From Vermamoeba vermiformis (lineage: Eukaryota), in assembly GCA_045837725.1 (NCBI GenBank), contig JBEWZL010000132.1, positions 1 through 64,000 on the forward strand: a stretch of 64,000 nucleotides of DNA. The letters are read 5' to 3'. The stretch's first letter is position 1. Each line of letters begins with the position of its first letter. A model generated the notes under the pieces. It had not been told where the DNA came from and did not search any database. It was given only the letters and a program-made list of their open reading frames with translations. This document shows, piece after piece, positions 1,102-50,216 of the stretch. The translations under genes were made by a program, and so were the position numbers.

Positions 1102-3541
1102 ATGAGTGACAGATCTACTGGTAAGAAAATAATTTATTTAATAATTTCCGAAAATTGTTCGAGTTTTACGTAATGTCGTTTTAACACCAAATACTATAGA
1201 TTCCTGGGTCGATTCCATTGATATGTCAGATATATTTAATGACTATGTTGATGACACCACTACGACAGATCCTTTCGACGACGTTGACATGTCGTCGATG
1301 TTTGAAGGTATTTTTATTACGCACAGTAATTGCGAAAATTAATGATTATTTGCCAACAGATTGGGACCAAAATTTAGCATTAGTTTATCAACCTCCTAAC
1401 AAACGACACTATAATTCAAAGAAATCGACAGTTGTCGAACGACGCCAGCCAACTGTGAAACTTGCACACGGATCACGATTTGAAAACGTTCAAAATGAAC
1501 AATGCTGCTCACAACAATGCTTGCAATTGCTTTCATTATCTCAATTGAAGCGAATTCGATTACCTTTTATTACCAAAAATGAAAGAGAAAGGTGTGTATG
1601 GCATGTCCTTAGTATCTTGCGACTAACACTCAACAGATCAGACTGGTTGTTGGATGTTTTGCGAGCTTCATCAATTAACAAAGGAGACGCATTAAAGATA
1701 GTATACAAGCTTGATGGCCATGTAGTGTGTCGAACTGCGTTCACAAAAGCATTGGGAATCAGCACAAAAAAACTTTCATCAGTAGTTAACTTGGTGAAAA
1801 CACAAGCAGTAGTTATTGTCCCCCATGGTAATAGTCTTCGACAATACAAGACTCCTCAGCGCGACAAAGTGGAAGCCTTCATTCTTGGATTGACAAATGT
1901 ATTTTTTGACGAGCAACCGGACTCTGACGAATGGCATTGCCCAATCATCTTGAACAAAAAACTCTTATATGAAGAGCTGTTAGAACAGAATACTCATAAT
2001 CCCCCTTCAAAGCAAGTGTTTTACAGCACAATTCAACATTACCAATGGATCAAATTTCCGAAAAACACAAGACTAGGAAAATGCGATGAATGTGTCAAGC
2101 TCAGAATGTAAGTACATATGTTTATAGCAGCAGATCTGATTCCAATGTAGAGAACTAAATCGAGCAAAACGGGAAACAGCAGTTCTAGTGCAGCTTATCA
2201 AACAAAAGTTGCGTGATCACAACACTCTCCAAAAGCTTGAACGTCTAACTTACGACACACGAAAAACATTTGATGCTACAATTCTATGGCAGACTATCTG
2301 GGATGGCTACTCAGGAGTTTTAATCCCACACATTTCATGGCCAAATTTCCCAAAGAGTTGGCTTCGCTTGCCGCGTCTTCGATTACAGGTTTCTGGTGTG
2401 ATCAATCATAACTTGGGAGTGAAAGAGCTGTATGTGTCTATAGCCCAGCAATTCGATCACGACAGCAATTACAGCATGAATCTACTGGCTATTCATATCT
2501 CAAAACAGCTTGCCAACGGACACTCTCTCCCTTCAAAATTAGTATTCCAATCAGACAACTGTTGGAGAGAGAACAAAAATATTTTTGTTCTTGGATTCTT
2601 TGCAGTTATCCTGCTGAAGAATCTCACCAAAGATATCTATTTCATCTGTTTACTGCAAGGACACACACATACAGATATTGACCAGCAAAATGTCCCGTTC
2701 GCAAAGGGACTAAAGTCATATGATTTGAAGACAGGTGCAATTGAAGATGTACAGCATTACGTTGATAATTGCTATGAAGAACAACCCCCATCAATCCATT
2801 ATGTGTCGACAATTTGGGACCTTAAATCTTGGATAGCCCCCTATCTACCAAAGTTGCAGGGGCATACCAAACCTCACGTCTTTTGGTTAACTCGAAATGG
2901 CAATGGGCATGTCGTTATGCGCTGGCGAGACTTCACTTCGACTGGTAATTATTCCATGTTTTGTATATAATTTCGAATTTAAACTTTCCATAGATGAGCA
3001 ATGGCAAGGAGGAGAAGATGGAGAACCAATCACAATTCTCACTGGGTTACCAGATGGCCAACCTCAACCAGTCAAACCGCACAAAATTGAAGATAACATA
3101 ATAAGTGCGACACGTCGAACTTACGACAAATTGTCCGAAGAGGAGCAACAGTATTATGAGCACCTGTTTCAGGGAAGACAAGTGGAAGATGATGATACGG
3201 CATTAAGGTTTTTGTCAGTTCAGCTTGAACAACCTTCCACTGTTGATTCCCCTCTTAGCTTCCTTCCGAAGCAAAAGCAGGTCAAGTGGAAATCGACAAC
3301 TAAAGTAACTGTTCTGACAAAAGCAGCAGTTATTAACAACCCTATCCAAACCAATATTCAACTTGACGAGGATGATATTGACGATTATGACGCACCAATC
3401 ATCATGCAACCAAGTTCTGAGACTGCTTGGACTGCAAAGCAATTCCGAGGACTAACCACTGCCAATTACGGTCGTTCACAACGTCAACGCTCCGTTCAAA
3501 ATTATGCAGAAAAACTTAACAATAACACAAACGACGAATAA
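1102..3541 (+). mobile_element. Spliced DDD transposase of the Sola-like / DUF7869 type, apparently intact (about 6 exons)
   Basis: ATG at 1102, and GT-AG introns join ORFs 1218-2111, 2188-2970 and 2897-3541. Motifs: CC-x3-C, VCRTAF..ALGIS, KCDEC, TIWDG, QSDNCWRENKN, GHTHTDIDQ. Confidence 0.75.
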
Positions 3542-9407: not shown

Positions 9408-11125
9408 CTACTCGGGAGCCCTTTTTCTCCTTTTTCTTGACTCGAGTGGATACAGATGCCGTGATTTCTGTGGTTTTCCGACCCCTGCAAAAACGAGAAC
9501 CATACTGTAGATCAAGATCAACGATCCGTAGATTGACAAAAACACCCAATCCAAAATCTTCGCCGCGTCAGGACGACCATTCTCGGTAAGAATGAACGCA
9601 ATGACGTTTTCGACAATGCTGAGCATAATACTGATGTACGTAACGACGAGATATCGCGACACGTGCGTGGCGTGCGAGATCTTAGGTATCTCTTCGACAA
9701 TAACGAAATTTAGAGCGACCTATTTGCCAGCATGAGCGCTGAAGAATCATTTAAAGTGATTGTATATGCCACGTACCGCTGCCAAGAAGAGCGAGGTTGC
9801 TGTCGATAGCCGACCAACCAAGTCACTCGGTTCTACGAAGAAAATCGCCCAGTTCATGACACTGACGAGCATCACCAGCATAATGAGGCCTTTGTAGTAC
9901 CCTACGAGTGATCAATAAGATTTCGACACTTGGCCCGTCCACTTACCAGTTTTGCGTTTGAGCTGTACCTCTAAGCAAATCTGCGAGTAATTGCGCTTGT
10001 CCTCGAATGAATACGGCTTTTCCTGGAACGTTCAAATGGACGTGAGTGTGTTGAAGCAAAAATCGATGCTTACTTCGAATATCTCCAGCGGACCCACAAT
10101 CTCCCATTCAGGCATCTCCATGTTATAACACATGTCATCGAGCTCCTCTCTGACGCACGTTAACTAATGATCGATAAGTAGCTGAGTGAAGACCCACCGC
10201 TCCGTGAAATCGATGAAATGACAGTTGCCGATGTCCCAGATCCGTGACGTGATTCGCAGACTAATTAAAAATTAACAATAGTGGTAAATGTATGTTTACT
10301 TACTTGATAATTTGAAGATCGAACGGGAATTGTTTCAGGTTGAGTGGCACGTGTACCGTCGCTCGAAATTTCTGTTTGAGCGAAAAAATGTAATTCAAAC
10401 AGCTCGGCTGAGGCGTTGACTTACTGAATAATAGTTCACTATTCCAAAGGGGCTGAAATCATCGAGCATCCAATACTAAATTAGGGTTAGCTAAAGTTGC
10501 TGTTAAGCACTCACCGTTCCCTTATCACCTTCAGGGATCTGCTTCGCTTTGAAAGTTCATGTCCGGTATCCATATTTTTGTTACATCGAAATCATCGCCT
10601 TTTTTGCCTGTAAAAAGAGATCGGATCACCAAACATTTACTTTTCGCAGTTATTTCAGAACGAACCTATCAAGCTTTTGTCTCGCCACCACATCTCTAGA
10701 GAAAATTCCATAAATACAGTCTCGTCGAAGCATTTAAAGTTCACCATCTTCGTGACGTAGAGGTTGACCAGAACATAATGCTTGTCAAAAAGCCCTGGAG
10801 CTCCAGAAGGATGAAGTTGCGCTAATCTTGCAATGCTGTAATAGTTCATTATTAATAATAGTCACTATTATCAATAATGACAAGTATTATTGTGCATACA
10901 TATCGTTCGTTTGCGACTCGCTGCGTATCTCGCTCCGTGACTGCATTTTGAAGAAGATTTTCGAACTGCGACGGCTCTCCATTTGGAAGGCCTTAACAGA
11001 AGAGTACTTTGCTATTATTACAGGATTAGCTTGAGCAGGCATTAGTGCATTTTACCTTTGGCCCAAACAGATGCGCTTGCGCCGGCATTGCTGGTCGAGC
11101 ATTCGCTGATACTTGTGTCGCTCAT
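9408..11125 (-). CDS. Cys-less pentameric ligand-gated ion channel subunit (Pro-loop receptor), copy 1
   Basis: Beta-rich ectodomain with MWWRD, Pro-loop VPLNLKQFPFDLQ, PEWEI and pre-M1 LKRK. Four TM segments, including RLSTATSLFLAA and the M2-M3 loop EIPKISHAT. Confidence 0.85.
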
Positions 11126-27958: not shown

Positions 27959-30080
27959 TTACATGCAATTGTGGTCGTTACGTGAAGCACGACGACTAAA
28001 CAGAAATGTCAACAACCGGACGCCAAAAAAGTATGGTGCGCGTTTTGTTAACCCGCTTAATCTCCAGGTAATCTTGTTGTCACCATTGATGCTACTGCTG
28101 TATCTGTTTGAATTCCTTATGAACCCAGAAGTAAGCGTAGCAACTGGCCAATTCCGCGCCTTCCTTCCCAAGCTGCTGGAAAAAGTCGAACGTTGTTCAT
28201 TTGAGGGCTAGGTGTCGTAATAACTGCAACTTGTAGTTGTGAGGATTAGAAGCGAGATATAACAGTCTTAATCAGAACCTGAAGTGCGACTTTATTCGAA
28301 TCAAATAAGACCTCCAGTAGGTTCCAAATAAGCAAAAACAAGCTTTTGCATAAACTCATCAGTGTCGGAGTTTGAATTCGAATCCGGTGATAGCACAACT
28401 ACCCTTGGTTGCCATCTATTTGCATAAAATAGATCTATTTCGGAGCTGGCCTGACTAAACAAGCGTGCCAGATAGTTTACAATTGCTTGGTAGTCATCTC
28501 GATCTTCTGTTTCAGAATTGTTATTACTCGTGAGTAATGCCCTTAAGTCTGGGAAATCCTCCGCAACTGCCTCCCAATTGACTTCTCGGTTGAATTCTGC
28601 GCAATCAAAAAGGCGTACGATGAATGCGCTGGGTATTGGGTCCAGCTGCTTCGCTGACGCCGCAATAAGTTCTTTTAATAATCCGAGACTCTCGTGGATA
28701 TAATTATGATGATATTTGAAGTTTTCTAGTCTCTTGTCAAAATGACGCACGTTGACCTACAGATCCGGATCAGCCACTTTTGATCAATGAACAGCTTCCA
28801 TACGACTTACTATTAGTACTATCGCAGTGATGAGATTGTCGCTTAACATGTATTTCTCGCGAATTGTAGCATAATCGAGCACTCTCGACTCTTCAGAAGG
28901 AATCACAAAATGACTTCAAACAACGACCATTAATATGACGAACAGTGCTCTAATGTCACATGATACGTACTAAAAGTGCATGCCAACTTCATGAAAGTAC
29001 ATCACCTGTTCAGCAGGTCTCCAGTAGTGCGCTGCGAATGATTTTTTGACGTTTTTGCAATGAGGCTGAACGCCGTACATGGTGCACAGTCTATTCCAAA
29101 TGTGTGCTTCACTGCACGCTACAATTTATGATTTGTTAGTGAAATTAGTACATTTCGGAGTGCTCGAAACCACGCCAAATCGTGCCCTGCTTCGCCGATA
29201 CATACCTTCGTATAATGCTTTGTTACATTTAGATAAGTTAACGATGTCCACTGGATGCGTTAGATATGCTGCAATACTCCATATTAAGTCATTCGGCATT
29301 GCTGAGAACAACGGAAATACGCCCGAGCCTGCGGATCCAAAATCAGTTGAGTACTGTGTATGATCAGGATATAATAGGAATCATTACTCTTCGTCAGTTG
29401 GGGCGTTCTTTTTAGTTTTTTTAGCGTGCTCAATGCCTCGCATGACAAGTAATATTCACTGAAAAGAGAAAGTGTTGGTGGTTTGAACTTGGCCATATAT
29501 TGCTCTTTCGTTGTCCATATAGAACGCATCATATTATATGTTTTTTGGTTTTCCTCGGTGTTTAAGCTCGCTATTGCTGAGAGTATCTTCGGATCATCGT
29601 GCGAAAATGGATCGAGTTGTTGCAGCCATTCACAAATCGGTTGCTGAATGGTTTGTGAGCCTTGACTACATAAATATAATTGTACCGTACTTCGAAGAAT
29701 CGTTGAGCATTTTCTTGAAGAAACAACAAAGACTTCGTTTTGAGTATCGGCCAAAGTAATTCTGTTTCATCTTCTGGTATCTTTCCTAAGCCCTTGAAGT
29801 TTTGATAGCTCCGAATAGATTTAATAACGTCGTGTACGGTGTCTCCTTCGACATCTGGCAACAGAATAAACCGGTTATTAATTTATTTTTAATTACTTAA
29901 TTTAATAGAAATCAAATAATTACCAAAATAAAGCGACCGAATAACGCTTGGCTGGTACTTAGGAATGCGATGCTGCGTTATTTTTTTTTTGCTCTTTTTC
30001 TTTTCTGTAACAACGGTCAACGATCCCGCGACAATTAGCAGGCTTTAGCAGGCTGAATTACCTTTCTTTTTCTTCTCCAT
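27959..30080 (-). CDS. F-box protein fused to a degenerate G-alpha-like C-terminal half
   Basis: The spliced F-box reads LFSAMPNDLIWSIAAYL...NLSKCNKALYEACSEAHIWNRLC. It is followed by ITAIVLIVNVRHFDKRL...NYIHESLGLLKELI, which resembles G-alpha beta4-alpha3. Confidence 0.65.
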
Positions 30081-30617
30081 TACTTTATTTACTCATGTTA
30101 ATATTGAAAAATCTCTTCTCTGTAGTTAGAGTCCGAAAACAAAAATAAACTAACTTTTTTGAAATTTACTCTGTTGGTGAACCACATTCGTTCTGGCTGC
30201 CCTTCCACGACGAACAAGAAAAATTCATTTCACGAACACCAACGCTTGGGAGGCTACTAATTGAGTCCTGAGCTTTAGCATAGTTTAATTTTTCTTGTTC
30301 GGCGATCACACCGTTTGTGGAACTTCGCATTTATGCCACCTTGCAATTCCTAGGAGTGACTTAATTTAACCCGAAGTTCATTTTTCTGCTCTATCCTAGG
30401 CATACGTTAGCGTCGGATCTTGGCTAATTCATGAACTTCGTACCACACTACCAATTGACAAAGGTCAAGTGATTTATTAAATGATTGTTGTTATACTGCA
30501 ATTGAACAAGTGCAAAGACATTGTCGACAAAACACCGCATTAACGGATGTGGTCGTGACAAGTCTAAAGTAGTTACATAGTGGTTATATGAAACAATAAA
30601 GCTCTGGCTGTACGAGC

Positions 30618-31943
30618 TCAGTACTCTTGGCCTCCTTGAGGTTCGTTGGGCTTGAACTTGGGCAACAAGGCCATGTGGATGTTAGGCATTACCTATCAAA
30701 AGAAGGTTATGGTGAGATCTAATTGCTCGAAGAATATTTAAACAGAAGTTGTTCCAATATAGCACTATACGTACACCGCCACCGGCTACAATGCACTTGG
30801 CGTACAACTTGTTCAACTCCTCGTCGTTTTTGAGAGCGAGCGTAATGTGACGGGGAATGATGCGAACTTTCCTGAAAAACACAAATACAACATTAGGCGC
30901 AACTCTGTATTATCACAATGGGCACTGCTACGTACTTGTTGTCACGCGATGCGTTGCCAGCGAGTTCTAGAACTTCAGCGGTCATGTACTCGAGCACGGC
31001 GCACAAATAGACAGGAGCTGATAAAAGCAGATCTGGTCAGTTCCGACGACTCAGACGAAGAAATAACGCCGCCCAGCAATACAATATCAAGGGATTATAG
31101 AGTGCTCGGACTTACCTCCATTACCAACACGGTGCTTGGTCGATTTCTTCATTAGTGTGGCTACACGACCAACGGGGAACGTGAGGCCAGCGCGTTGACT
31201 CTTTGAAGTGGCACCGTTCTTGCCTCCACCTGCCGTGATGTTGCAATTGTACTTGGTGACTGCCTTGGTACCTAATATTACTACGTATTAGTCACTGGAA
31301 TAGAATTATCTGCTGGTAAATTAACTGGATCCGGATCAGATCGAAACAAAGACTACATCCGGTAATTGCATTGTTACCAGTACCAGTTAACAATCTAAAA
31401 TATACTAGTATATAATGCAGTACCTTCGGAGACGGCGTGCTTGGCAAGTTCACCAGGCAAATGCAAACGAACAGCAGTTTGAATTTCACGAGATGTGGTA
31501 GTGTTTTTGCCTTGAATGCTGGTCAATTCGTGGGCAGACTTGGTGATCATATTGAACAAGAACCAAATAGTATCGCCCATAACAGCCATGGCTTTGTTAC
31601 TAATGCCAGTGTCAGGATGCACCTTACCAAATAATGCGTCAGAACAAAATCAATAATCGTAAATGTACAATATTATATTAAACAAGCAAATATAGAGCAA
31701 TTATAAGCGTTAATTAATTTCAGTATCGATAACGTAAATTAAATACTTGATTGATCTGGATATTTTAATCTTATATCATAGGTAACAGGCTAATAATAAA
31801 TAATAACAACAATTATATAAAATAATTAACGCTTATAATTAATTTGAGTTTGAACGGCCAGATTCACTCACTTGTTTAAGAACCTTGTAAATGTAAGTGC
31901 TCCAGTTCATAGTACCGCTTCTTTTTTGTCCACGTTTACCCAT
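30618..31943 (-). CDS. Single-chain histone H2B-H2A fusion (doublet), 226 aa, 6 exons
   Basis: Exons 31943-31872, 31622-31424, 31271-31116, 31017-30936, 30871-30775 and 30692-30618, all GT-AG and in frame. The H2B motifs ([46 protein letters not shown]) run into H2A motifs ([49 protein letters not shown]). Confidence 0.95.
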
Positions 31944-32112
31944 TGTGCTGTGTTTGATGTGGACGTTTGTGGGTGCCAAACAAAAATAAAGATCTGAATT
32001 AAAATTTCCAGGAACATACGATCTGATTTTCGGTAGGGGAACCAGAAAAAATACGGAACAAACACTACTACGTGCGGAAATAATTTATAATAGTACAAAT
32101 ACAACTTGTTTC

Positions 32113-35100
32113 TTAATTTTCAACGCTTATTAACACGAGATCTATAGCACTGCTACTCTCCGAGTTTGTGGCAGCTTTGTTCAGTCCGTCTTGAGTGTAT
32201 ATAGGCACTCGCTCACCAGTCGCTTGGTCTCGGTAGTGCAATAATATGGTCTTGCCCTGAACACGATTACAATCGTTAGAACAAGGGAAAACAAAAGTAG
32301 ATCGCGTGTCATACCTCTTCCCCAAAATACATTTCTACGAGCTTACTGATCGATAACAAGTTGAATTGATTTCGCTCGATCATTATACTCTGGCGACGGT
32401 TTCCTAACTCACAATTCAAACTGATAAGTTGCTGAAAAAACATGTTAGTTCGGATCGACTAGATTTGTCACAAAAAAAAATACTTACTTGTGTCTCTCTA
32501 GCTTTCTTTCTGAACGCAGCTAATCTCTTTTTCTTCCACTGATCGAAAGTAACTTGCTCTGCGAAATCATTAGCATTGTGTGAGTTTTCTTGTTGCTCGA
32601 TCTACAACTTACCAGCGAGCTGTGGGCTGATCTCCAAAAATCTCAAATAAGAAATCATCAACGTCTTGTTGATGTTCTCTTCGAGCAGATTGACAAGGGT
32701 CTCTTTATCAGTCTCGTGCTTCGTGCAGAACACGCAAGCCACGTGCGAAAACATATCACTGCCGTATTCCAACTCGAAGGCATAGGGCTCCTCTGTACCA
32801 TAATAATATTAACACATATGCGCTGATAAGGCAAAGTAAGCTTACCCTCGTAAGTTCTATGCAAGACGACCTCGTCCAAGCCAATTTGATATTTGAGCAC
32901 CAACTTGCGTTCCTTGTTGGTCTGGATCTTGGTCTTGGTGTACAAGAACAAATCATTGAACAAAAAGTAATAGCCACGTGATTTGTTCCTGCTGGCCTCG
33001 TTAAAGCGGAACAACTCTCCTTCAGACACCAAATAACGTCCTTCCTTGATCAAATTCAGATCCTAATCGAACAATCCACATTAATATATATATTACAGTT
33101 AGTATTTTCATTTGACGTACGTCTTTGTTTGATTTTCTGAGCTGATTTTCAATTTCTTGTACGCGCATCAAGTTCTCACGGTCACCGCGCTTCTTGTTGC
33201 TCTTGCCTACGAGTGTCTCGATCAAATTGTACGCATTCACCGTGACTGGATGATCGGCCGTGTTGCGCGACTGCTTTTCTAACTCCTGTAATTAAACAGG
33301 TTAGTTTCAACACGCTCTTTTCACATCAAGTAAGGGCACTTACGGATAATAAGAGCGGGTATTTACAAATTCGTTGAATGGGCTTAATCAACAAGGCGTT
33401 AATGTCCAAGTTTCGGCACTCGCGTCGCAAGTAACAGTACTATATTTACAGACATTAGGGACGAAGTAAATACACGAGTTAATCGTTCGAAACTTACTTC
33501 TAAGAAAATATCCAAATCGTTATTTGTTGCTCGAAGTTCTTTGATGTTTTGATTGACGGAGTCTTGTTTGCTGCAAAATTCCAAATAGACATCGAGATCT
33601 TGAGCCTAATAATAGATCATTCGTTAAAACCAAGAATTGACCTATAAAAAGGAACATCGTACCATATCTACGAAGCACTTGGCAATATTCATATGTGTGG
33701 GCTTATCCAACACCTTCTCGAACATTCCTAACAGCTTCTTGTGCACTTTGTACAAGTCTTCAATGTTCGCGAACATCTTGTCTAAACTTTCAGCCGACAA
33801 AATTTCTTTGCTTCTCAACGGTTGCAAGAAGATCTAAAATATTTTAATATTGAGCATAATGCAGCATTAAATGGAAAGGTTGTTACTTACTTCAATAATG
33901 ACTGATAGATCGTAAACGTAGTCTTTTTCCGTTAGAATGATCTCCTTAATCAAGTTATTATCGGTCTTAATTCGCTCCTTTAACTCGCTCGTCGATTGAT
34001 CTTCCAAATTACTATAAATAGACATTAGCAAGAAGTCAAATCAATAGTCCATTCAAACCAAAACTTACGTCTCGTCCTCTTCTTTTGCCGATTCAGTCAA
34101 TGCTTTCGACCCTCGTTTGGAAGCTTATTAAGAATAATATGTTAGCCCTAGAACGATTAAAATATTAAGAATGATGCGTACATGACTCGGACTGGCCATC
34201 GAGTCTTTGTTTAGTCACCGAGGAAGTCTGAAGAGCCTTTTCAATATCGTCTGTCGATACACCTGTCGAGTTCCTTGAAGGCTAAAAATTAAACATAATT
34301 AGTTAGAAATTGGAATTAAGTAATTACTTGGGAACAGTTTGGGACTTACTCCACCGCCAGACAGTTGTTCCTTATGTCTGAACCACTTTCTCAGCTTCGG
34401 CTGACCTTCGCCTTGAGTATTAGCAGGGGCAGTTTCAGGCGAAGAGGCGGCATCGGGCGTTGAAGATCTGGACGCATCCAGGCTGTGCGATGAGATTGTT
34501 TTGCCAATAATGCTATTTTACGTTAATTCATGATTACTGACTATTTTATACGCTTACTCAAACTCGTCGCCGCTAATGGCATTACGCTTAGTGGATCCGC
34601 TGGAAATCTTGGGCGGCAATGTTTTGAACTTTTCTTTATCTTTCCTCTTGGACTTCTTCTCTTTCTTTGACTCCTCTTTAGGACTAATAGGAGGTGTTGA
34701 GACGCTAGAGTTCAGTGAGCTCCTGTGGTACCGTTAGAACTAATTCTGGATCCGATCTGATTATTACTTACGCGCCGGATGCAGAATCAGACAACTCGAG
34801 TTCATCTTTGCTGGAAGACGATAACCCCTTTGACTTCCTCGAGCCCTTCAGTTTCTTGCTACTGGACAGCTTCTCCTTCAACTTTTCTTTGTCTTTTTTC
34901 GTCAACGAGTCGCTGTGGCGCGATGACTTTGGCAATTGCGAATCACTCGCCATTCTGTTCATAGGTGGTTGCTCTAAACAACAATTAGTTACAAATGCAG
35001 CATATGACATATTAATAGGCTTTGTGGCAATTTAAATATATGTCTTAGTCAAAGCACGTACCGTGAGAAGGAGCGCGGTCAGGTTGATTCTCGGGCACTT

Positions 35101-44967: not shown

Positions 44968-45221
44968 CTAATACTAGGAAATTAAGATGCTTTTATGCTC
45001 TCCAGTCACATCATTAAGGATGGATACCCCCTCCAGCTTCTGTTCAATTTCGCGGTGATTCTCCAAACTCCCCCTCTGACCCACACCTCTGACCACCTGT
45101 CAGGAAAGCTTGGTTCGGTTTAGAATTTCAATTTTTCAATGAAATCGTAGCTAGTAGTATTACATTCTCGTTTATTTCACAAATACGAGCAGTTTAGCGG
45201 GACTGCATTATTTGGCCGGGT

Positions 45222-47514
45222 CTAATCCGTGTGGCTATCCGCAAGAAATTCAAAATTTTGTTCAAATTGCGCTATGACAGTCTCCATTGATGGTCGATCT
45301 TTAGGATCTTTGCTCCAGCACTTTTCAATAATGTCAACCAGTCGCTGATCTGTTCCTTCGGGCAGCTTTTCGTGTGCGCCTTTGTCTCGAATATCAATGG
45401 CTGCGGCGAATATATCTTCGTCGTCAAAAGGAGCCTTTCCAGTCAGAATCTCGAAGCACACATTAGCGAACATCCAGACATCTGTGAGTCAAAAGAGGTC
45501 GGTTAGCGAGACATCCATTGCTGTCGTGTCGGACGTACCTGACTTTGGCGAGTACACTTGACTTGCAATCGACTCTGGTGCCATCCACTTGACTGGTCCA
45601 ATGTTGGTCTTGGTTTGACCCATCTGCTCATTTGAAGTCACGAATCGTGACATGCCAAAGTCCTGGAAAAAAAGTGTCAAAAACTATTGTGACGCAGTCA
45701 CCGACGAATGGTGTAAACACGGTGGAATTTCACAGTGACGAATTGCTTGGAAAGGAGGAGGCGATACGTACCGAAATCTTTGGTTGACCTCGATTGAGCA
45801 AGATATTTCGTGCAGCCAAGTCTCTGTGCACGATATCATTGGTGTGCAAGTGGTAGACACCGCATGCTGTGCCATACATCAACTTCAATCTCTCGTTGAA
45901 AGACAGGTCAGGATTGTCCTTGAGATACTTCTCGAGACTGCCACCGTTGCAGTACTCGAGCACAATGGCTGGCTGAGCGCCGTCAGTGCAGATACCAATC
46001 AACTGAACGATGTTTGGATGAGGTTTCATCTTGCAGTAGAGATCTGCTTCGTGTTGGAAGTCTTGCAATGCTTCGATTTGATGGTAGTACTTGACTGCTA
46101 CTTTCGCGTTGCTGAATTTTGCGATGAATACTTTGCCGTAGTTTCCGCTACCGATTTCTTTCTCGAGCTTGATCTGCGAAGCCATGACACGGTTCTTTTC
46201 GTTGCTAATGTTCGGACTTCCAGACGGGCTGCCGTTCAGTGAAGGCACTGCGCCGTAGATCGTTTCGCCGGAGTTGGTGCTCGTCAGCTCGTCTTCGTCT
46301 TTCTTCTCTTTCTTCTTTTTCTTTTGCATCTTTTTCACGCCAAAGAAAACTCCGAGGAATATTGCGGCGGCACCAGCGACTGAGAGCGACACGCCGAGGC
46401 CAATGCCCAAAGCGTCCGGTCCTGGCGGAGCTGTTCCGTTGACAGATGGTTGATTGACATTGTTGACAACATTAGGCGTGACTTGTGTAGGACTATTGCT
46501 CGTAGGAGTACCAGCTGTTGGCGGAGGATTTTTGAGCTCTGCAAATAGTCTGTTAGTTCATGAACGGCTCGTTCAGAGAAAACATACCAAGACTCATAGT
46601 CGGACCTGTAAAATTGACCGATCGTCGACTAGCGAACTCCGTCTCATCACTGCCACTAGCTATTAGCATAAAAGTGAGCCTGGCTGTTAAATTATTAGTT
46701 TGGATCCAAAGTCGCATTTCGATCTGGTACCTGGTGACGGGTTTGCAGGAAGCCAAGCTGTTACTACGGTTGTAACATCAAACACCATTTTTGCATCTGC
46801 TATGGGAGGTATGATGTTTGTCGTGATATTCGCGTAATTGGTGAGAAAATCCGCTACGAAGCGATCACTTGTCAGTTGTGATTGATTTTGGGTCAAGACT
46901 AGACTATAAAGTCCTGTTCAATACTAATTGAATTTTAAAATCATACCCATATTATTCCAAGTAATTGAACCCGAATTCCAAGTTTGAGTTGAATTGCAGA
47001 TGCACAACGTCATCGTTTCTCCACTTGCAACAAGAATATTATCGCCAAAGTACAAAATAAGCCTATGCGTTGGTAACAATTAATCATGATTTATGGCAGT
47101 ATAGTCGAAGCCTTACTTGGCGCTGATCACTTCCCAGCTGGTCCGATTGGCAGGAAAGTCCCAACCGACAAAGCCGCGAAAGTAATACAAATCAGTTTCG
47201 TTAGGACTTCGTACTCTGATTACATCTAAAAATATATCTCGAAATACATCGTCTGGGAAACCTCTGGCAACGAATCCGTCATCTGAGCTGATAAGATCGA
47301 GGGCTGTAAGAATATAAATTGTCAATACTCACAAATTGAATTAAATTAATATGTGGTTAAGCTTAGGCGGTTAGGTTTTTTAAAGGTGAATAAAAATTTA
47401 GAATTGATTTAACAAAAAGTATTTTTTTTGCTGGATCCATCACTTACTTTGAGAGTACGTTAGGCAGCTAAGCGCATAAACGCATAATATTGTAATTAAA
47501 GTCCTGCAGGTCAT
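45222..47514 (-). CDS. Receptor tyrosine kinase-like protein, copy 1 (signal peptide, DNRLRE/CBM96-like ectodomain, TM, kinase)
   Basis: Signal MTCRTLITILCVYALSCLTYSQ, TM GIGLGVSLSVAGAAAIFLGVFFGV, GSGNYG, HRDLAARN, DFG, PVKWMAPE. Confidence 0.9.
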
Positions 47515-47847
47515 TATGTCCGGATTCAAAGTAAGACTAACTTGATGGTGACGTGCGTCACACCATGAAGTGTCAAAAAATGAAACGGATCTACCCCTTC
47601 TGTTGTAAAGTAGTAAATCTATCAATAAAATAAAATTAAAGCTTTGACTAAACTCAATAACGAGCACAACGCCAATTTTAGCCGGTTTACGTAATTCACA
47701 ACGGTTGCGGGTTTACGTTAAGGCTGACTACTTTTTTAGTAAGTTTTAGACAAACCTTAGTTAGGTCATGACACAGGAAGTTCGTAATTTGATATTAAAA
47801 TGTTATTTACACAGGTTATTCTAGAATACATAGGTTCGTGACCGGAT

Positions 47848-50216
47848 CTAATCGCTTTCACTTTCGCCAATAAAATCGAACTTTTGTTCGAACTCTTCAA
47901 TAACAGTGTCCATTGACGGCCTGTCATTCGCGTCTTTGCTCCAGCACTTTTCGAGAATTTCGACCAGTCGCGGATCTGTACCTTCGGGCAGTTCAGGATG
48001 TTTTCCGTTATCTCGGACATCAATAGCGACAGTGAAAATATCTTCGTTCTCGAAGGGAATCTTATTGGTGAGAATTTCATAGCATACATTAGCGAACATC
48101 CAGACATCTATTCGTTGAAAGTTGTTAGTGGACAACAGATCCAAAAGTTCGTTTGTAGAACGTACCTGACTTTGGCGAGTACACTTGACTTGCAATCGAC
48201 TCTGGAGCCATCCACTTGACTGGTCCGATGTTGGTCTTGGTGTGGCCCATCTTCTCGTTTGAAGTCACGAATCGTGACATGCCAAAGTCCTGGAAAAAAT
48301 GTGTCAAAAACTGATCTGTCGACAGATGGTGTAAAGACGGTTAACTTTGCTGTTACAATGACTGATTGCTTGGAAAGGAGCGAGTGATACGTACCGAAAT
48401 CTTTGGTTGACCTCGATTGAGCAAGATATTTCGTGCAGCCAAATCTCTATGCACGATATCGTTGATGTGCAAGTGACACACGCCACAAGCCGTGCCGTAC
48501 ATCAACTTGATCTTCTCTTCATCGGATAACAGTGGGTTGGCTTTGATGTACTTGTCGAGACTGCCACCGTTGCAATACTCGAGCACAATGGCTGGCTGAG
48601 TGCCATCAGTGCAAATACCAATCAACTGAACGATGTTTGGATGAGGTTTCATCTTGCAGTACAGATCTGCTTCGTGTTGGAAGTCTTGCAATGCTTCGAT
48701 TTGATGGTAGTACTTGACTGCTACTTTTGCATTGTTGAACTTTGCAATGTACACTTTGCCGTAGTTTCCACTGCCAATCTCTTTGTCGAGCTTGATTTGT
48801 GAGTTCTTAATGTGCGTGTTCACGACGCTGTTGGGACTACTGCCACCAGCGACACTAGAGCTAAGAGGCACTGCTTCGTAGATAGTTTCAGTTGGTCTAG
48901 GACTCTCAGCATCAGCAGCTTTCTTCTCTTTCTTCTTCTTTTGCATTCTTTTCAGGCCGAAGAACAATCCGAGGAATATGCCTGCTGCTCCAGCGACTGA
49001 CAGTGACACGCCGAGGCCGATGCCTAGCGAATCTGGTCCAGCAGGGGCAGTGCTGTTTAGATTGGAGTTGTTATTGTCCACTTGAGGTGTAAGCGCGTTT
49101 GGCGTGACTCCCGCGGGACTGTTGCTGGCCACCGGTGCACCGGATGTAGGGCCACTAACAGGTCCCGCGACAGGTCCTGCGACAGGTGTTGTTACTGGCG
49201 CTGCTACTGGCGCCACTGGTGCGACAGGCGGAGGTGTTCCGAACGCTTTAAATTCCGTTAGTTCATGAATGAATGGTTCAGTGAAAACATACTGAGTGAC
49301 AGGGTTGGAGGCGAGTATTTTGTCGATCTCTTGCTGGCAAATTGAGTTTCTTGGGCTGTAGCAGCATTGAGTATCAAGGTCAGCCGTGCTATAGTCAAAA
49401 TAAATAAGAATAAGTCTACTGTCGTCGGAAAATTGTGCGCCGATCCGTACCTGGCGCGGGGTTCGCTGGCAACCACGTATTAAGGGCGTTGGTAATATCA
49501 TACGTCATTTTACCGGCCGATAATGGAGGAATTACCAGGGATGAAAGTATTTGAAAATTTGTGCGCCAAGCAGCTGATTTAAAAAAACGGTTAGATCACA
49601 CTTGTTTTTTACTGTCGGAATTATAATCGAATCATACCCATGCTATTCCATGTGAATGTAGCTGAATCCCATGGGCTAGTTGAGACGCATAAGCCCAAGG
49701 TCATTGTGTCTCCACTAGCGATCAGAACGGTGTCGCCGAAGGGCAAAGTCAGTCTTGAAGTATTAGATCAGTTAATATAATAATAACTTCGTAGTGTAAA
49801 ATAGTATTATTAACCTACAAGGCACTGCTGACCTGCCATTCGGTTCTATTAGCTGGGAAGTCCCATCCAACAAATCCGTAGAAGTAGTAAGTTGGATATG
49901 AGTCACCACTCGTAGGACTGCGAACCCTAATTACATCAGGAAATAAATCCGTCCACGTGTAAGTAACGTCGTCCAAGCCTACGAATCCATCATCCGTGCT
50001 TATAAAATCGATTGCTAAATAAACAAAAAAATGGTTAAAACTAGGTCGTATATTATTGTCTTTTGGGCCTTTGACAAAATAAAAAGAAAATTTTGAATTT
50101 ACGAAAATTTAACGGTCAGTGCACCGATCTGCCACACGTTTTGTTTACTTACTTTGTGCGGAGGATAGTGCCCACAACAATGACAGTAATATAATAAATA
50201 TAGTCTTGCCAGCCAT
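47848..50216 (-). CDS. Receptor tyrosine kinase-like protein, copy 2 (tandem paralog)
   Basis: Signal MAGKTIFILLLSLLWALSSAQ, PVA-repeat stalk, TM, HRDLAARN, PVKWMAPE; same exon structure as copy 1. Confidence 0.9.

Follow-up and report, generated by a model that had tools for sequence, protein, structure and literature searches.

Can histones H2B and H2A exist as one natural polypeptide chain in a cellular eukaryote? Recent work on the origin of the nucleosome starts from the premise that fused core histones are found in viruses and archaea, not in eukaryotic cells. The question is raised by a gene on the minus strand of a 64,000-nucleotide stretch of DNA from Vermamoeba vermiformis (contig JBEWZL010000132.1, positions 1 to 64,000), which as a whole is called the window here. 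From the letters of this DNA the gene had been read as a host-encoded obligate-dimer histone variant. Our analysis arrives at the same best reading because the gene contains introns, its neighbours are cellular and no viral hallmark was found among the larger open reading frames (ORFs) of the window; the nucleosomal role is predicted from the sequence. We consider it likely that the gene is resident in the nuclear genome of a cellular eukaryote and encodes a natural single-chain H2B-H2A histone, which acts as a pre-assembled nucleosome module or histone variant.

The coding region is composed of six exons and five introns, and its elements are located as follows (positions refer to the window).

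30618..31943, minus strand: whole H2B-H2A coding region with ATG at 31943 and TGA stop at 30618-30620, based on exon joins, frame and translation
31872..31943, minus strand: exon 1, amino acids 1-24, with a 13-residue basic N-terminal tail and the start of H2B helix 1; splice donor GTGAGT
31424..31622, minus strand: exon 2, amino acids 25-90 plus 1 nucleotide, with the histone fold of H2B, in which the first half of helix 2 is divergent
31116..31271, minus strand: exon 3, amino acids 91-142, with the last part of H2B (helix C, KAVTKY), followed by the linker and the first part of H2A (RAGL..FPVGR, helix 1, L1)
31195..31248, minus strand: linker, amino acids 99-116, 18 residues long with a high content of Gly, Ser, Thr and Lys, based on the translation
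30936..31017, minus strand: exon 4, amino acids 143-169, with H2A helix 2 and the first acidic-patch glutamates (LEY..AEVLE)
30775..30871, minus strand: exon 5, amino acids 170-202, with H2A L2, helix 3 and helix C; NDEEL is the second part of the acidic patch
30618..30692, minus strand: exon 6, amino acids 203-226 and stop, with the H2A docking and C-terminal segment (PNIH..LLPK) and a 12-residue tail ending in GQEY
31623-31871, 31272-31423, 31018-31115, 30872-30935 and 30693-30774, minus strand: five spliceosomal-type introns, all GT..AG

The coding sequence of 681 nucleotides yields 226 amino acids without any internal stop. In transcript order the introns measure 249, 152, 98, 64 and 82 nucleotides, and their content of guanine plus cytosine (GC) ranges from 24 to 46% compared with 49% in the coding sequence. 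The fusion point is situated within exon 3, where the translation shows neither a stop nor a methionine nor a splice site at the H2B/H2A join, and the stop-to-stop ORF 31087..31287 spans this join uninterrupted. The six exons, the 226-residue protein, its start and end and the limits of exon 3 that were given in the original prediction agree with the computed coordinates, and the junction claimed for exon 3 is borne out by one continuous frame running through it.

A small feature of the AT-rich intron 1 is a 22-nucleotide inverted repeat with arms at 31699-31720 and 31819-31840, which are 95% complementary and 98 nucleotides apart. No other copy of the arm is present in the window (0 expected by chance). 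The repeat may form a small hairpin, or a tiny inverted-repeat element may have left it behind as a footprint.

A query of 51 residues from exon 3 retrieved two longer database proteins, P0001 (218 amino acids) and P0002 (262 amino acids), both of them chains with H2B followed by H2A. The spliced window protein is identical to P0001 in 177 of 215 positions (82%) and to P0002 in 136 of 219 (62%). In the Pfam, structure and database analyses it is represented by P0001 as an 82%-identical stand-in. Comparison of P0001 with the window by tblastn matched all six exons, with E-values of 3e-47 and 4e-34 for the main groups and 0.001 for the 14-residue match in exon 1, and the matches end at the exon boundaries. 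Residues 1-14 of P0001 correspond to 31910-31869 in exon 1, and exon 2 is 79% identical. Because the contiguous and independent P0001 is colinear across each of them, all five splice joins are validated. Identity between the two proteins amounts to 72 of 85 positions in the H2B core and 85 of 98 in the H2A core but to 10 of 18 in the linker, and conserved folds with a looser linker are the pattern expected under selection on the folds. Pfam recognizes PF00125 in two stretches of P0001 (83.7 bits) and PF16211 with 38.4 bits. The gene in the window is not a chance ORF.

The encoded protein has a mass of 24.6 kDa, an isoelectric point (pI) of 9.9 and a net charge of +17, which is about half of the +33 calculated for a full-tail fused animal model. 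Its H2B fold covers amino acids 14-98, and H2A, lacking its N-terminal tail, covers amino acids 117-226. Canonical H2B carries a long basic N-terminal tail of about 30 residues. In agreement with the short tail noticed at the outset, only 13 residues precede the fold in the window protein as compared with 34-37 in full-length animal models, so the long basic tail is missing. The linker between the two halves is present as described, with a length of 18 residues instead of roughly 15, and takes the place of the C-terminal end of H2B and the N-terminal tail of H2A.

The motifs LEY..AE..LE and NDEE, known as the acidic-patch residues, occur at the positions where the human chain P0256 has them in the alignment, which likewise shows that KAVTKY of H2B as well as the docking segment and LLPK of H2A are retained; for the acidic patch, KAVTKY and LLPK this fully agrees with the earlier description. 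In the H2B core 56 of 85 positions agree with the human H2B half of P0256, so that the H2B fold is recognisable by sequence, and the H2A core agrees with the same chain in 65 of 91. Departures from canonical H2A, besides the lost N-terminal tail, are the segment from helix 1 to L1, which is one residue shorter (FPVGR-to-APVY spacing of 16), and the C-terminus GQEY, an H2A.X-type ending with Gly for Ser, so that the H2A.X signature SQ[E/D] plus a hydrophobic residue is not preserved. The high divergence of H2B helix 2 that had been pointed out before is confirmed but is shared with P0001 (15 of 22 positions identical), whereas other relatives agree with the window protein in 4-8 of 22. Among the aligned proteins only the window protein and P0001 have the rewritten helix 2.

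Whether such a chain is of eukaryotic or viral type can be judged from structural comparison. The AlphaFold2 model of P0001, calculated from a 55-sequence alignment, has a predicted local distance difference test score (pLDDT) of 90.5 and a predicted template modelling score (pTM) of 0.84; only the linker (pLDDT about 63) and the C-terminal residues ~190-218 are modelled with low confidence. A foldseek search against PDB reveals engineered single-chain H2B-H2A constructs as the best matches of this model with 64-66% identity, among them 6w4l with a template modelling (TM) score of 0.97 on the target, a root mean square deviation of 1.1 Å and 65% identity. The 20 best PDB sequence matches of P0001 are engineered H2B-H2A fusions as well. 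The Melbournevirus nucleosome chain 7n8n_B follows at rank 38 with 36% identity, and in the viral structures of BFVD the ten best doublets are 22-45% identical to P0001 (Pithovirus LCPAC304 45%, Marseillevirus D2XB49 36%). P0001 is therefore not closer to the ten best viral doublets (22-45%) than to the eukaryotic constructs (64-66%).

The laboratory-made chains (6w4l, a Xenopus chimera, 7wlp, 8yjm and 4m6b) show the same join, with the H2B C-terminus connected to a truncated H2A N-terminus and with trimmed tails, and the laboratory-made P0256 aligns to the window protein without rearrangement. They differ in being engineered, while the window contains a natural gene whose product has an 18-residue linker of its own, a divergent helix 2 in H2B and a shortened L1 in H2A. 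With canonical H2B and H2A of the H2A.X type the window protein has in common the fold type, the acidic patch, the docking segment, LLPK and KAVTKY, and its QEY end is H2A.X-like. However, canonical H2A and H2B are encoded by separate head-to-head genes, whereas here there is one polypeptide with missing N-terminal tails and no partner gene on the other strand. The doublets of giant viruses (Marseillevirus D2XB49, 7n8n_B) share the order H2B-then-H2A and the pseudodimer fold, with TM scores of 0.68-0.79 on the target, but they reside in viral genomes, in contrast with a gene that has five introns and cellular neighbours. The link to marseillevirus doublets drawn at first is one of common architecture and not of demonstrated descent, and an identity of 36% contrasts with 64-66% to eukaryotic pairs. 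Sequence comparison assigns the window protein to the canonical eukaryotic type with no special kinship to known viral doublets.

The surroundings of the gene lead to the same side. Blocks of the window have GC contents of 35-46%, and the 2-kb block holding the histone gene has 40%. Among the 33 larger ORFs are TKL kinases, an ABC transporter, an EF-1beta exchange domain and a Rieske-type oxygenase domain, together with PAP2, the C-terminus of a P4-ATPase, a PH domain and DUF7869. None of these 33 ORFs, when scanned, belongs to a viral hallmark family. With five GT..AG introns and cellular neighbours the locus does not have the character of a virus genome or a virus-derived region: the window is part of an ordinary chromosome of a cellular eukaryote. 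No second histone gene was found in it by tblastn, including queries containing H3 and H4. A histone 3' stem-loop was not detected either, as there is no Rfam match with E<=1 in 29800-32600 and none at the gathering score in the whole window, and the scan for transfer RNA genes and Rfam families over the window found nothing. Having five introns and no stem-loop match, the gene does not resemble a replication-dependent histone gene. Many protists polyadenylate all their histone mRNAs, and the absence of a stem-loop is weak evidence on regulation.

The window protein does not stand alone. A phmmer search with P0001 against 1.84 billion representatives, of which the best 150 matches were listed, gave mostly matches that cover P0001 in one stretch (residues about 2-207). 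Among 260 retrieved proteins 177 align to the window protein in a single alignment across both halves, H2B then H2A, and a stricter definition by motifs recognizes 78 collinear chains, whose linkers have a median length of 18 residues. The check for H2B and H2A on one chain in other protists was positive for a gene model of Balamuthia mandrillaris (P0235, 218 amino acids, labelled 'Histone H2B type 1-A') and for three transcriptome ORFs marked complete, namely P0213 from MMETSP and P0215 and P0010 from EukProt Trinity transcripts. As the latter three originate from transcriptomes, protists in culture do produce mRNAs for chains of this kind. P0251, another full-length relative, is labelled as archaeal metagenome-assembled genome (MAG), and many further relatives without names are located on contigs of about 900-1300 nucleotides.

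The uncharacterised relatives P0001, P0235, P0213, P0215, P0010 and P0251 resemble the window protein in their N-terminal tail of 2-13 residues, a Gly/Ser-rich linker of 10-22 residues, the L1 spacing of 16 and the aromatic C-terminus. They are annotated as plain H2A (P0001 carries the label jgi, 'histone H2A'), as H2B or not at all, and the divergent H2B helix 2 is found in the window protein and P0001 only. The window gene is real in its structure and is a member of a conserved and uncharacterised family of cellular-type single-chain H2B-H2A histones. Consequently, the novelty assumed in the original prediction is kept insofar as no characterised orthologous family occurs in the literature searched, but the gene is not unique because an uncharacterised family is already deposited in databases.

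A separate set of collinear doublets comprises P0170, P0206, P0219, P0234, P0173 and P0181, where a complete-looking H2A N-terminal tail directly follows H2B and the linkers have 21-61 residues. This set does not belong to the tail-less class that includes the window protein.

In the phylogeny of 178 collinear chains reconstructed with FastTree the window protein and P0001 are sisters (support 98) and belong to a clade of 139 rows (support 97) together with Balamuthia, MMETSP and EukProt sequences and without animal or engineered chains. For the H2A half alone, stand-alone H2A proteins of 118 amino acids or fewer, many of them probably partial, were used for comparison. In the resulting FastTree phylogeny of 214 rows the doublet label changes 13 times as compared with a mean of 71.3 after shuffling (0 of 500 shuffles gave so low a value), and the H2A half of the window protein falls in a doublet-only clade of 19 rows (support 95). 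In an IQ-TREE reconstruction of 89 rows (quick search, mixture model), in which 41 doublets are natural ones and the other 48 rows are H2A sequences from stand-alone or animal proteins, the label changes 2 times, while shuffling gives a mean of 29.7. Holding the 41 natural doublets together is not rejected in the approximately unbiased (AU) test (p 0.777), the constrained tree being 16.4 log-likelihood units better.

The length of H2A L1 provides an independent character which agrees with these H2A-half trees. The FPVGR-to-APVY spacing is 17 in all 97 scorable stand-alone H2A proteins (4 of 101 were unscorable) and in all five animal or engineered chains. A spacing of 16 is found in 40 of 109 collinear doublets including the window protein, P0001, P0002 and those from Balamuthia, MMETSP and EukProt; the others divide into 41 with a spacing of 17, 16 with other values and 12 unscorable ones. 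Among the relatives with short L1, 32 of 39 end in Tyr, Phe or Trp, and the C-termini of 177 collinear chains show SQxPhi in 19 cases and SQ[DE]Phi in 9. These aromatic C-termini and SQxPhi endings suggest that the H2A half descends from an H2A of the H2A.X type and that this species has lost the phospho-serine.

Further loci were obtained from a scan of prokaryotic genome assemblies which returned 66 contaminant loci. In 36 of them H2B and H2A are separate genes, lying on opposite strands (head to head) in 35 of the 36. These 36 loci (L002-L043) are found in assemblies labelled as bacterial or archaeal MAGs and contain head-to-head H2B/H2A arrays, often every 4-6 kb, which indicates eukaryotic contamination of the MAG bins. 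Two junction-spanning, distant doublet-like matches occur at 9989-10372 of L063 (28% identical, a 152-kb contig labelled Candidatus Colwellbacteria) and at 14-244 of L061 (44% identical, a contig labelled as bacterial MAG).

One locus of the 66, L001, contains a true collinear doublet. It is located at 9920-10744 of a 35.8-kb contig with 57% GC and dense intronless ORFs that are mostly without family, and the assembly is labelled as a MAG of Proteobacteria. The doublet itself is intronless, comprises 274 amino acids with full-length tails and has an identity of about 51% to the window protein. When the ORFs of L001 were compared with PHROGs and PDB sequences, they gave only generic matches to a helicase (XPB-like), an AAA ATPase and a glycosyl/pyruvyl transferase. 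By its gene density and its ORFs without relatives, with no hallmark genes found, L001 looks like a contig of a large DNA virus mis-binned as bacterium.

Such a contig bears on the view that a doublet of a giant virus (Nucleocytoviricota) entered the host genome by integration and acquired introns there, the host having since domesticated it or simply tolerating it. According to PMC9145170 and PMC11222145, giant viruses typically have H2B-H2A doublets, Nucleocytoviricota are the commonest members of the two ESM Atlas clusters nearest to P0001 (one of them 'Viruses 91%'), and the virus-like L001 carries a collinear doublet about half identical to the window protein. Nevertheless, this doublet keeps its full tails and groups with the tail-retaining P0060, P0170 and P0206 outside the clade of the window protein. 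The five spliceosomal-type introns, the ordinary neighbours and the lack of a viral hallmark in the 33 larger ORFs are likewise at odds with viral origin, as is the fact that P0001 resembles the canonical eukaryotic pair far more closely than the ten best BFVD doublets or 7n8n_B. The cellular DNA-damage motif SQ[DE]Phi, moreover, is kept in 9 of 177 relatives. The direction of a transfer cannot be read from these data, and one from host to virus is equally possible. We therefore regard viral integration as quite unlikely. Even less can be said for an artefact or a dead gene, that is an assembly chimera of an H2B and an H2A gene or an unexpressed pseudogene that is open by chance. It is true that the putative eukaryotic fusions checked by Talbert et al. 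were mis-annotations (PMC9145170, section 16, as far as this part of the source goes) and that the Ovis aries model P0243 and the Auanema model P0202 show the same kind of false fusion. But animal 'fusion' models have full tails or an internal Met-initiated H2A, whereas the junction in the window lies within one exon without stop, start or splice site and does not correspond to a predicted splice between complete genes with their start and stop kept. Both tails are deleted alike in the independent sequences P0001, P0002, P0235, P0213 and P0215, the frame is open over six exons, and the identity to P0001 is concentrated in the folds. Since ordinary H2A/H2B pairs lie head to head on opposite strands (35 of 36 loci), simple read-through cannot give the order H2B-H2A. 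An artefact is thus very improbable.

Concerning function, the product could also be non-nucleosomal, either as a precursor whose cleavage in the linker yields tail-less H2B and H2A, or as a histone-fold protein with a different task, for instance a storage form or a decoy for acidic-patch binders or chaperones. Cellular double histone folds such as Sos and SPT3 act outside chromatin, as stated in the part of PMC13088155 at hand, and the histone domain of Sos (1q9c_B) appears in the foldseek list with 21% identity. Lacking the two tails and carrying half the net charge, the chain would make weaker contacts with DNA and nucleosome, and the flexible linker (pLDDT about 63) would be accessible to proteases. 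On the other hand, the parts that contact DNA and the octamer are conserved at canonical levels as compared with human (65 of 91 in the H2A core, 56 of 85 in the H2B core), the acidic patch, docking segment and LLPK are kept, and with a pI of 9.9 the protein is still strongly basic. Laboratory-made H2B-H2A chains serve as faithful dimers in many solved complexes, and, according to PMC11222145, Xenopus histones that were fused artificially assemble into nucleosomes in E. coli. A cleavage motif was not identified, though no motif search was made. On balance a role outside the nucleosome seems unlikely.

Two of the animal models had been candidates for natural fusions and were rejected: in Ovis aries P0243 H2B breaks off at SEG and is followed by a Met-initiated H2A, and the H2A part of Auanema P0202 is identical to stand-alone Auanema H2A. 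Together with P0239 and P0154 they belong to NCBI models that chain two to four histones (H2B-H2A, H2B-H3-H2A, H2B-H4-H2A-H2B). All four are annotation artefacts, as seen from internal Met-initiated starts or identity to stand-alone copies.

Several points weigh against a resident single-chain nucleosomal histone. Expression of the gene and incorporation of its product into chromatin are predictions from the DNA sequence, and the results of Pfam, structure and database searches belong to P0001 instead of the window protein itself. Single exons of the window gene, as pieces of 24-66 amino acids only, score weakly in Pfam: PF00125 on exon 2 reaches 22 bits (E 2e-4) and stays under the cut-off of 26.4, PF16211 (Histone_H2A_C) on exon 6 reaches 20.6 bits with a cut-off of 20, and exons 3-5 give no match, which is due to the shortness of the pieces. 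The ESM Atlas clusters that look like P0001 contain members of Nucleocytoviricota. Regarding the phylogeny, the doublet group for the AU test was named after the first tree had been seen and the test has only about 105 columns, the trees do not include stand-alone H2A and H2B known from doublet-bearing lineages, and the comparison with stand-alone H2A is restricted to short proteins. The apparent unity of the doublets could reflect shared taxonomy and not one fusion event. Moreover, in the H2B core other doublets share 52-57 of 85 positions with the window protein and the human chain shares 56 of 85, so that by sequence the doublets are no closer to each other than to human canonical histones.

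If the gene indeed encodes a resident nucleosomal histone its mode of action can be outlined by analogy. Engineered H2B-H2A chains fold as native dimers and for this reason the natural chain should be an intramolecular H2A-H2B dimer: it would fold back on itself to give the ordinary 'handshake' dimer just as the laboratory-made single chain. Each molecule would then represent a pre-assembled 1:1 H2A-H2B module with guaranteed stoichiometry. It could dock on the (H3-H4)2 tetramer via the retained H2A docking segment and the H2B C-terminal helices and would display an intact acidic patch on the nucleosome. With halved charge and most tail modification sites missing, such nucleosomes may be of altered stability or regulation. 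Within a nucleosome the two copies of H2A are in contact at L1, and the altered length of L1 suggests that nucleosomes with two doublets are probably preferred. Introns and the missing 3' stem-loop would fit replication-independent expression as a replacement-type variant, which is a weak argument for protists.

How far this departs from existing knowledge can be seen from the literature. A natural cellular H2B-H2A fusion is not described in the full-text literature searched, whose coverage excludes subscription journals and supplements, and the portions seen of PMC13525598, 10.1101/2021.11.30.470311, PMC6450098 and PMC5704553 do not describe one. According to the relevant section of Talbert et al. 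(PMC9145170) no fusion was confirmed in cellular organisms, and an excerpt of PMC10919886 states that 'as a rule' there are no fused histones in eukaryotes. In the accessible text of PMC11222145 an evolutionary ratchet is proposed which locks histones into separate proteins. Table 1 of a 2026 review on cellular double-histone-fold proteins (PMC13088155), which is the part of that review considered here, lists no nucleosomal H2B-H2A doublet. The Physarum histone inventory, within the pages available, reports no fusion (PMC8600027). Dictyostelium H2Bv3 was taken up as a lead to a fusion and dropped, since the consulted portion of PMC5333086 treats it as the principal H2B and mentions no H2A part or fusion.

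With a spliced nuclear gene, a junction inside one exon and a conserved family having transcripts in other protists, the premise of separate core histones in eukaryotic cells becomes directly testable. The gene would offer a natural cellular system for studying how a forced, tail-less H2A-H2B dimer affects nucleosome assembly, exchange and modification, and would allow asking whether fusion is compatible with histone-variant biology. It would also allow asking in which way doublets moved between hosts and giant viruses. It is conceivable but rather doubtful that tail-less H2B-H2A represents an old intron-bearing cellular lineage, known from at least the species of the window, Balamuthia and several protists in culture, that eukaryotes never lost the capacity for using fused nucleosomal histones, and that some giant-virus doublets were captured already fused from such hosts instead of surviving from a time that preceded the last eukaryotic common ancestor.

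Two other regions of the window deserve mention. Two protein-kinase genes (Pfam PK_Tyr_Ser-Thr/Pkinase), duplicated in tandem, are located at 45213-47064 and 47839-49755 with a period of about 2.62 kb and six repeat blocks that are 71-92% identical. At 1200-3541 there are three adjoining plus-strand ORFs of 303, 276 and 216 amino acids, the middle one matching DUF7869 with 152.9 bits, and together they may be a transposon-derived gene.

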